Positions 2,609 to 4,119 of a stretch of DNA of 4,119 nt are shown here, piece after piece. A model generated the notes under the pieces. That model was not told the origin of the DNA. It saw nothing but the letters and a program-made list of their open reading frames with translations, and ran no database searches. The DNA comes from a virus. Lineage: Duplodnaviria; Heunggongvirae; Uroviricota; Caudoviricetes. The position numbers and the translations under genes are program-made. The stretch lies in IMG/VR virus record IMGVR_UViG_2565956631_000001. One strand, 5' to 3'. Position 1 is the first letter of the stretch, and each line of letters opens with the position of its first letter.

Positions 2609-2895
2609 GGTTTAATCTTCCCCTCCTTCAGCAGTATCGCCTGCGTCCTGATCACGCCTTCGAGGTGGTAAAGTCTGGCGTCTTTGTTGTCGAGATTATG
2701 GGTGCGTCGGTCGATTTCATCGTGACACGCGCTACAAGCCCATGCGCCGATCAGGTCGTCAGGCTTCATCCCCGTTCCGCAAATTCCAGCCATCCGGTAA
2801 TGTGCCAGAACTGTAGTTTCAGGATTGCCATTGCATACGCCGTAAATACGTACCTGGCATTCTCTGCCGCGCGCTTCTTTGCGTAGATTAGCCAT
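2605..2895 (-). CDS. ybcO: YbcO-like DUF1364 protein (putative zinc-binding nuclease)
   Basis: 96-aa ORF MANLRKEARGRECQVRIYGVCNGNPETTVLAHYRMAGICGTGMKPDDLIGAWACSACHDEIDRR..., with Cys/His residues spaced for metal binding. It has the size and position (immediately upstream of rusA) of ybcO in the E. coli DLP12 prophage; the family assignment is from recollection. GGGAGG Shine-Dalgarno upstream. Confidence 0.7.
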   Translation of the reverse strand: MANLRKEARGRECQVRIYGVCNGNPETTVLAHYRMAGICGTGMKPDDLIGAWACSACHDEIDRRTHNLDNKDARLYHLEGVIRTQAILLKEGKIKP

Positions 2896-3617
2896 TAAGC
2901 AGCCTCCCCTGTTACTTTCAGCATTCCGTTATCGAGCAGCTTTCTGGTCAGCCACTGTTGGCCACGCCCGGTGATTTTTGTGGTGAACGATATCTGTATT
3001 CCGTGATTTGTGTTGACCGCTGTTTCTTTCACTGTGAAATAGCCGCGCTCCATATATTCCTGCATTGGCACATTTCTCCGGGAACCTGAAGCAATAAGGA
3101 TTTTGTGATCGCGCATCCACGCAAACAGTTTGTTTGGACCAATTCCAACAACCTTTGCAAAGTTTCCAATCAAAATTCCGCTGGCCTCGCCAACGCGATC
3201 GGCAAACTCAACTTTAGGTGCGGCAATTGCGAGCTGGTTTTCCAGTTGCATTTTCTGCTCAGCAAGATCAGCAGCAAGGCGCAACGCTTCTGGTAGCGTT
3301 TTGGGGATATTAACCGCAGCTTCTTCAAGCTCTCGCCAGCGGTCAACAAGGCGAGCGGTGAATTCCGGCGACAGCTGGGCTACAACGACAATACTGTCTC
3401 GCTTTCCTTGTTCGCCTTCGAATACATACACACAAAAACTTTGATTTAAGCCTAACCCATTGATTCTTCCACAATCCTCAATTTGAGGAAGCCGGATAAC
3501 ACCATTTTTAGCCAGCGTTTCGATGGTACGTTTCACATTGTCATGACGCTTACCTGTAAGCTCAGCGATTTCAATGCTTGTCATTTTGATGGCATTGCCA
3601 TTTATTAACTCATTCAT
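2895..3617 (-). CDS. Phage regulatory protein with N-terminal Rha domain and C-terminal KilA-C (antirepressor-type) domain; Roi-like
   Basis: 240-aa ORF. The N-terminus MTSIEIAELTGKRHDNVKRTIETL is typical of Rha-family DNA-binding domains. The C-terminus ...GNFAKVVGIGPNKLFAWMRDHKILI... is typical of the KilA-C/antirepressor domain. Shine-Dalgarno GAGGAAGAAG upstream; the start overlaps the ninF stop (ATGAATGA). Confidence 0.8.
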   Translation of the reverse strand: MNELINGNAIKMTSIEIAELTGKRHDNVKRTIETLAKNGVIRLPQIEDCGRINGLGLNQSFCVYVFEGEQGKRDSIVVVAQLSPEFTARLVDRWRELEEAAVNIPKTLPEALRLAADLAEQKMQLENQLAIAAPKVEFADRVGEASGILIGNFAKVVGIGPNKLFAWMRDHKILIASGSRRNVPMQEYMERGYFTVKETAVNTNHGIQISFTTKITGRGQQWLTRKLLDNGMLKVTGEAA

Positions 3618-3786
3618 CGTCTTCTTCCTCGTACATTGAGCTATTCGGATCGCTCATCAGTTCTGCGCAGCAGTGCTCACACACGTGAACTTCCAGCACA
3701 TGCAGCTTCTGACCGCAGTTAGCGCACGTTAAAGCTCGCTCGACGCTTTCTTTCTGGTATTGAAGGGATTGGGATGGGCTAAGCAT
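3610..3786 (-). CDS. ninF: NinF-like small Cys-rich protein (not in the ORF track; found by manual translation)
   Basis: Manual reverse-complement translation gives the 58-aa product MLSPSQSLQYQKESVERALTCANCGQKLHVLEVHVCEHCCAELMSDPNSSMYEEEDDE, near-identical to lambda NinF as I recall it. It is probably absent from the track because it falls below the length cutoff. AGGA lies upstream; its start overlaps the stop of the upstream ORF. Confidence 0.85.
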   Translation of the reverse strand: MLSPSQSLQYQKESVERALTCANCGQKLHVLEVHVCEHCCAELMSDPNSSMYEEEDDE

Positions 3787-4119
3787 TATTGGCGTCCTGC
3801 ATCATGAGAAATACGATCATGGCGGCGCGGAGTGGGTTATTGTCTATGGTAATAAATTCACAAAATCTATCCGCCTCCCACCAATATTCATTCTTCATTC
3901 CAGGATTATTTCTTTCGTATGCACATATGCTGATCTGATGTTTTGCGATTACAGGCCATGCGTCTGCTGGGTTATTGCAGTAGTCGTACCATCGATAATT
4001 ACCATTTGCTTCATTGCCAACAGACCGTCCATCTGCGTTGTTCGGATAACCTAATGGTTTTGCCCCAACTATCACTTTAAATACTCGCTTGTTAATTTCA
4101 AAATCACTTAACTGTGAAT
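3779..4119 (-). CDS. Hypothetical protein, C-terminal 113 codons; the reading frame stays open to the right window edge, so the true start is outside the window
   Basis: The track reports a 98-aa ORF from a GTG at 4075, but the same frame has no stop codon from 4076 to 4117 (...SQLSDFEINKRVFK precedes VIVGAKPLGYPNNADGRSVGNEANGNYRWYDYCNNPADAWPVIAKHQISICAYERNNPGMKNEYWWEADRFCEFITIDNNPLRAAMIVFLMMQDANNA). Same strand as the operon, and its stop overlaps the ninF start. I do not recognise the family. Confidence 0.5.
   Translation of the reverse strand, partial: SQLSDFEINKRVFKVIVGAKPLGYPNNADGRSVGNEANGNYRWYDYCNNPADAWPVIAKHQISICAYERNNPGMKNEYWWEADRFCEFITIDNNPLRAAMIVFLMMQDANNA

Follow-up and report, generated by a model that had tools for sequence, protein, structure and literature searches.

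The open reading frame immediately upstream of ninF in the window (the whole 4,119-nucleotide stretch of viral DNA analysed here) is almost certainly ninX, a small gene of P22-type nin regions whose products belong to Pfam family PF10765 (Phage_P22_NinX / DUF2591). The product, NinX, is a folded, selected, stand-alone protein of 115 amino acids, translationally coupled to ninF, and its carrier is an HK620/P22-like lambdoid prophage or phage of E. coli. The gene is already known – it is a member of a catalogued phage family, with a near-identical allele in RefSeq – and as a single gene it matters little, since the family is large and its members are routinely annotated. Its value lies at the level of that family, which spans some 1900 clusters at 50% identity, has a confident fold and forms a sharply delimited island of variation, flanked by genes with 93-95% identity.

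The window ORF and its assignment to NinX

The frame runs on the minus strand, the coding strand of all window genes, from 4117 to 3779 as 112 sense codons and a TAG stop; as the sequence-only reading had stated, its translation is stop-free up to the window edge. When the ninX stretch was shuffled by mononucleotide, an openness of 112 codons was kept in one of 5000 shuffles. The nearest record, from E. coli prophage L001, holds a gene of 348 nt (115 aa) that is 97.9% identical at the nucleotide level and begins MDYSQLSDF. By comparison with this homologue the ninX CDS in the window (3779..4119, minus strand) comprises codons 4-115 of 115 plus the TAG (3781-3779), and what is missing is M-D-Y alone: window bases 4119-4118 form part of codon 3 (Tyr), the window starting at that codon's second base, and the predicted ATG lies 7 nt past the window end. 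The truncation that had been noted at the window edge is thus trivial, with 112 of 115 residues visible. Residues are numbered below from the first visible one unless stated otherwise; the full-length number is the visible number plus three.

A 98-aa GTG-initiated ORF (3779-4075) appears in the list of open reading frames because the true ORF runs past the window edge. As the whole gene it was rejected: the frame is open to the edge and the ATG of the homologues lies 7 nt beyond it. The in-frame stop just upstream that would have left only a short GTG-initiated fragment, a possibility raised earlier, does not occur.

On its downstream side ninX meets ninF (3610..3786, minus strand), which encodes a 58-aa zinc-ribbon protein (PF05810, E=1.8e-12). 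The junction reads ...AATAATGCTTAGCCC: the ninX TAG (3781-3779) lies within ATGCTTAG, which also contains the ninF ATG (3786-3784), and the two genes overlap by 8 nt. Both the coupling and the naming of the downstream gene as ninF, proposed from the letters alone, are borne out. Along the minus strand the order of genes is ninX, ninF, roi/ant (KilAC and Rha domains), YbcO (DUF1364) and RusA, followed by NinH, Q, holin S, lysozyme R and the start of Rz; from its position ninX should be expressed within a tightly packed, translationally coupled, delayed-early rightward operon.

The unusual composition that had been remarked upon is real. In the visible part of NinX, Asn, Trp and Tyr make up 13.4%, 3.6% and 5.4% of residues, compared to 4.3%, 1.1% and 3.0% in the other eight window proteins; of Cys there are three (C47, C65, C86), rather than the four that had been counted. 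GC content is 41% in ninX and 49% in the remaining window.

Assignment to NinX is based on profile, motif and nucleotide matches. PF10765 matches the window ORF with 51.5 bits (cut-off 22.6; E=1.4e-13) across profile positions 3-114 of 114, and phrog_444, a family with no assigned function, matches it at E=8e-42. Every defining feature of PF10765/NinX that could be tested was found: the motif SDFEIN at the N-terminus, D-Y/F-C-N-x-P-x-D-A-W in the centre and NPLRAAMIVFL in the C-terminal helix are all present, and the invariant NinX columns D5, C47, R97, A99, M100 and L104 are all matched. The Pfam scan of the ORF gave PF10765 and no other family, the NCBIfam scan gave no match, and Rfam and tRNA scans across the window found nothing. 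At the nucleotide level, a megablast search with a 520-bp ninX-ninF query turned up similar DNA in 219 phage records; of 5426 complete E. coli genomes, 1700 contain such DNA as well. Many of the matches span the conserved parts of the query only. Genes under the matches are annotated as NinX, "DUF2591 family protein" or "phage protein NinX family protein", and the window's own allele is present at 97-99% identity in four E. coli prophage records (P0001, L001, L003 and L004).

The sequence-only reading placed the gene "where lambda carries ninE". This placement fails: in prophage L001 and phage CUS-3 a 58-aa NinE gene lies directly upstream of ninX, either ending 2 nt ahead of the ninX start or overlapping it, and among 80 related IMG/VR loci (in which ninE was located by tblastn with NinE, as a gene separate from ninX) ninE is found no more than 400 nt upstream of ninX in 61, and in 66 ninF follows it. 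ninX has therefore not taken the place of ninE: the genes would stand in the usual P22 order, ninE-ninX-ninF, and ninE is expected just beyond the window edge. A published account gives P22 the genes ninA, B, D, E, F, G, H, X, Y and Z; ninX is absent from lambda (PMC8022706). The observation that the gene is not lambda NinE or NinD was accurate: lambda NinE, like NinX, is encoded by a small gene of the nin region whose translation is linked to that of its neighbours, but the two are unrelated proteins, and the Pfam scan of the window ORF gave no match to NinE (PF05322-type). P22 NinX, on the other hand, shares with window NinX the full-length profile match, the length class, the N-terminal, central and C-terminal motifs and the place between ninE and ninF. 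It differs in its interior: the inner modules of window NinX are of another type than those of P22, CUS-3 and HK544. In P22 and HK544 about 50% of the 520-bp query is matched, in two pieces at ~96% identity, while in CUS-3 the whole query is matched at 86.8%.

The family is large and uniform in layout. An exhaustive search of 1.84 billion representatives found 1928 clusters (50% identity) that match the NinX profile at E<=1e-3; the best 150 of the 1928 representatives are stand-alone proteins of 103-158 aa, matched across nearly the whole protein, and no domain fusion was found among them. There are 1532 word-sharing homologues of window NinX, and PF10765 was present in all 120 listed (median length 116 aa). 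The usual length is 105-130 aa; longer members, such as P0090 (189 aa) and P0145 (158 aa; match 40-157), were seen, whose extra length could reflect a miscalled start codon or an added N-terminal segment.

Some homologues are found in loci that have neither ninE nor ninF. In two of these (L066, 2512-6601; L046, 596-2506) NinX homologues stand amid small early accessory genes – HNH endonuclease, DUF551, a TraR/DksA-type zinc finger and DUF4222 – with an integrase close by in the former and a 636-aa Dcm-Dam double methyltransferase fusion in the latter; in a further locus (L010, 4732-5406) a small terminase subunit lies downstream of the NinX homologue. Such contexts are generic early or accessory ones in unrelated temperate phages, and give no pointer to function.

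Conserved segments, variable modules and the predicted fold

Conservation along NinX was read from an alignment of 71 diverse sequences, which was also the basis of an AlphaFold2 model (pLDDT 94.9, pTM 0.87). Three conserved segments alternate with two variable modules. The conserved N-terminal segment (LSDFEINKRV; residues 1-17, 4067..4117, minus strand as for all segments) contains the first predicted helix (5-17). It is followed by variable module 1 (GAKPLGYPNNADGRSVGNEANGNYRW; residues 18-43, 3989..4066), modelled as a loop and a beta-hairpin (33-44, with strands 33-37 and 40-44), and by the conserved central motif (YDYCNNPADAWPVIAK; residues 44-59, 3941..3988), which contains the second helix (50-59). 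In the alignment this motif is D-Y-C-N-N-P-A-D-A-W-P-I-I; its Cys (C47) is invariant, and conservation is 90% or higher at D45, N48, D52, A53, I56 and I57. Variable module 2 (HQISICAYERNNPGMKNEYWWEADRFCEFITIDN; residues 60-93, 3839..3940) is the source of most of the Trp and Tyr and of two of the three Cys, and is modelled as a three-stranded sheet spanning residues 63-92 (strands 63-69, 77-84 and 87-92). The protein ends with the conserved C-terminal helix (NPLRAAMIVFLMMQDANNA; residues 94-112, 3782..3838; helix 95-111), within whose strongly conserved terminus, NPLRAAMIVFLMMQ, R97, A99, M100 and L104 are invariant across the alignment. Comparison of the positions of the modelled elements with the segments of the alignment therefore indicates that the conserved segments are predicted helices, and the variable segments five predicted strands.

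The modules make ninX a hypervariable island. Pairwise identities were calculated for 61 loci that carry ninE, ninX and ninF; these loci were picked for their similarity to the query, and the medians, like the dN/dS values below, are from pooled, phylogenetically non-independent pairs. Median identity is 0.93 for NinE and 0.95 for NinF, compared to 0.52 for the whole of NinX. Within NinX (full-length numbering) it falls from 0.70 at the N-terminus (1-20) to 0.12 in variable module 1 (21-46), rises to 0.56 in the central motif (47-62), falls again to 0.23 in variable module 2 (63-96) and reaches 0.95 at the C-terminus (97-115). The earlier suggestion that this is one of the nin region's variable slots for accessory genes is sound; ninX varies far more than the genes next to it. 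Published comparisons give the same picture: the nin regions of Sf101 and HK544 are identical apart from ninX, which is 43% identical (PMC4159516), and between phage L and P22 most nin genes are near-identical, with ninX at 70.9% at the DNA level (PMC8022706).

In a megablast search with the whole window, HK620, HK140, Kapi1, Gally and N7 match at 96-97%, but the match begins only at base 284-368 of the minus-strand query: the unmatched bases before it hold nearly all of ninX. The boundary of homology falls at 3752-3835, in ninF or the 3' end of ninX, and HK620-type homology starting there therefore marks a mosaic joint at the conserved ninX C-terminus / ninF start. Among 82 related loci, 12 share the window's type of module 2, 12 its type of module 1 and three share both; the two modules assort independently. 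Within the window's type of module 2, dN/dS (pooled Nei-Gojobori) is ~0.17, so that the module, rather than eroding, is kept as a functional unit and replaced as a whole; in each segment of NinX dN/dS lies well below 1. Mosaic recombination between alternative alleles could account for the hypervariability with no arms race.

Fold comparison (Foldseek against BFVD and PDB) returned uncharacterised proteins only, with no characterised inhibitor among the matches. An uncharacterised protein from Burkholderia cenocepacia J2315 (4PUP / 4QYB) and a phage protein from Bacillus cereus ATCC 14579 (1R7L, which we take to be the founder of Pfam 'Phage ABA sandwich') superpose over most of the NinX chain with identities of only 15-17%; both being uncharacterised, they add no function. 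None of the three entries was recovered by phmmer or by profile hmmsearch of PDB sequences at E<=10, and searches of PDB sequences with the single protein or with the 71-sequence profile gave chance matches only (E>=0.13). According to its title, 4QYB is the crystal structure of a disulfide-bridged dimer; in NinX a single Cys, C47, is invariant.

A possible partner-binding role and the alternatives to it

The sequence-only reading held that no function could be inferred, and this stands: neither PF10765 nor phrog_444 has a characterised function. What it named as refuting it, a confident match to a nin-region family that is well characterised, has come about by half: the match is confident and to a named nin family, but that family has no characterised function. 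In the full-text literature searched, NinX, DUF2591, PF10765, phrog_444, 1R7L and 4PUP were found in genome-annotation mentions and not in a functional study, and neither the NinX annotations nor the literature searched gave a partner protein or an assigned function.

The anatomy of the protein nevertheless suggests a role. NinX is an acidic, single-domain protein in which, if the model is correct, three conserved helices form a scaffold bearing a five-stranded beta-sheet made of two modules; these modules pass as whole units between phages. We propose that NinX may bind a partner protein stoichiometrically – a host factor or a component of host defence – and that specificity for the partner would come from the exchangeable sheet modules, and the fold from the conserved helices. 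NinX would then be a dispensable accessory, a host-interaction or counter-defence factor outside the recombination machinery. We give stoichiometric binding, with specificity set by the sheet modules, a little short of an even chance; the proposal is made because NinX is small and acidic, is without catalytic or nucleic-acid-binding signatures, and combines a conserved scaffold with swappable, constrained modules. Its charge (pI 5.0, net charge -3.4; family median pI 5.0) suits a protein binder better than a binder of nucleic acid. A DNA-mimic reading was rejected: the net charge of about -3.4 is far from the acidity of Ocr or ArdA-like proteins.

A stronger form of the proposal, that NinX is an arms-race protein (anti-defence or host-takeover) with the beta-sheet modules as specificity cassettes on the three-helix scaffold, is possible, if on the doubtful side. 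Were it true, the host targets engaged or neutralised would differ from one ninX allele to another, and this would account for ninX alone being hypervariable where nin regions are otherwise nearly identical. No family of defence components in PADLOC-DB matches window NinX at E<=1. The conserved scaffold, the swappable but constrained modules and the predicted early expression make NinX a reasonable and cheap candidate for anti-defence or host-interaction screens using P22, HK620 and lambda hybrids.

Other readings have to be set against protein binding. That NinX is a nucleic-acid-binding accessory with a dsRBD-like core, beside NinB/Orf, RusA or NinG, and YbcO, seems unlikely. The alpha-beta-beta-beta-alpha domains that it calls to mind (RNase III dsRBD, Staufen, the N-domain of ribosomal protein S5, hibernation factors) resemble NinX at most in topology, and NinX departs from dsRBDs in its extra N-terminal helix and hairpin, in having no sequence similarity to them, in being acidic rather than basic and in the absence of the dsRBD lysine motif; nor did the Pfam scan of the window ORF give a dsrm match at E<=0.01. 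The lambda nin region is non-essential and ninX is absent from lambda (PMC8022706), the termini of ninX are conserved at the DNA level while its interior is exchanged, and its GC content is lower than that of the rest of the window: all of this would also be expected of a passenger gene caught between conserved recombination joints, with little or no function, under relaxed constraint and mosaic exchange. We nonetheless regard a passenger as distinctly unlikely, given that ~1900 clusters keep a similar length and similar motifs, that the alignment yields a very confident predicted fold, that dN/dS is well below 1 in all segments, the window's variable module included, and that ninX has an unbroken frame, coupled in translation to ninF.

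The invariance of Asp5, Cys47 and Arg97 across the 71 diverse sequences might be taken to mean that NinX is a small enzyme using these residues, which we consider very improbable: no enzyme family is matched by sequence or by fold, the protein has just 115 aa, and the invariant residues sit in helices and helix caps, where a structural role fits. There is next to no chance that the gene is, as first described, a previously unrecognised one in the ninE slot that is substantially cut by the window edge. With ninX lacking in lambda, the gene resembles no lambda nin protein, and in that respect the description was apt; yet membership of PF10765 is confident, P22 NinX has its own Pfam family and routine RefSeq/GenBank annotation in hundreds of records, ninE lies upstream in relatives and three codons only are missing.

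Other features of the window

The rest of the window is a late-early region of HK620/HK140/Kapi1 type, with 96-97% identity to those phages. Between ninF and YbcO (2895-3617, minus strand) is the gene for a 240-aa Roi/antirepressor-like protein with a Rha N-terminal and a KilAC domain; in P22, HK544 and Sf101, ninG (Rap) directly follows ninF. The position between ninF and YbcO is a second variable slot of this nin region.

Further downstream, between Q (1441-2064) and holin S (684-1007), the minus strand carries a match to a lambda pR'-type promoter (TTGACT-17-TAAATT, 1398 to 1370), followed by a strong intrinsic terminator with a stem of 13 pairs (1336 to 1308) and a run of T. The layout of this segment (1308-1398) resembles that of a late promoter and the 6S/tR' terminator acted on by Q.
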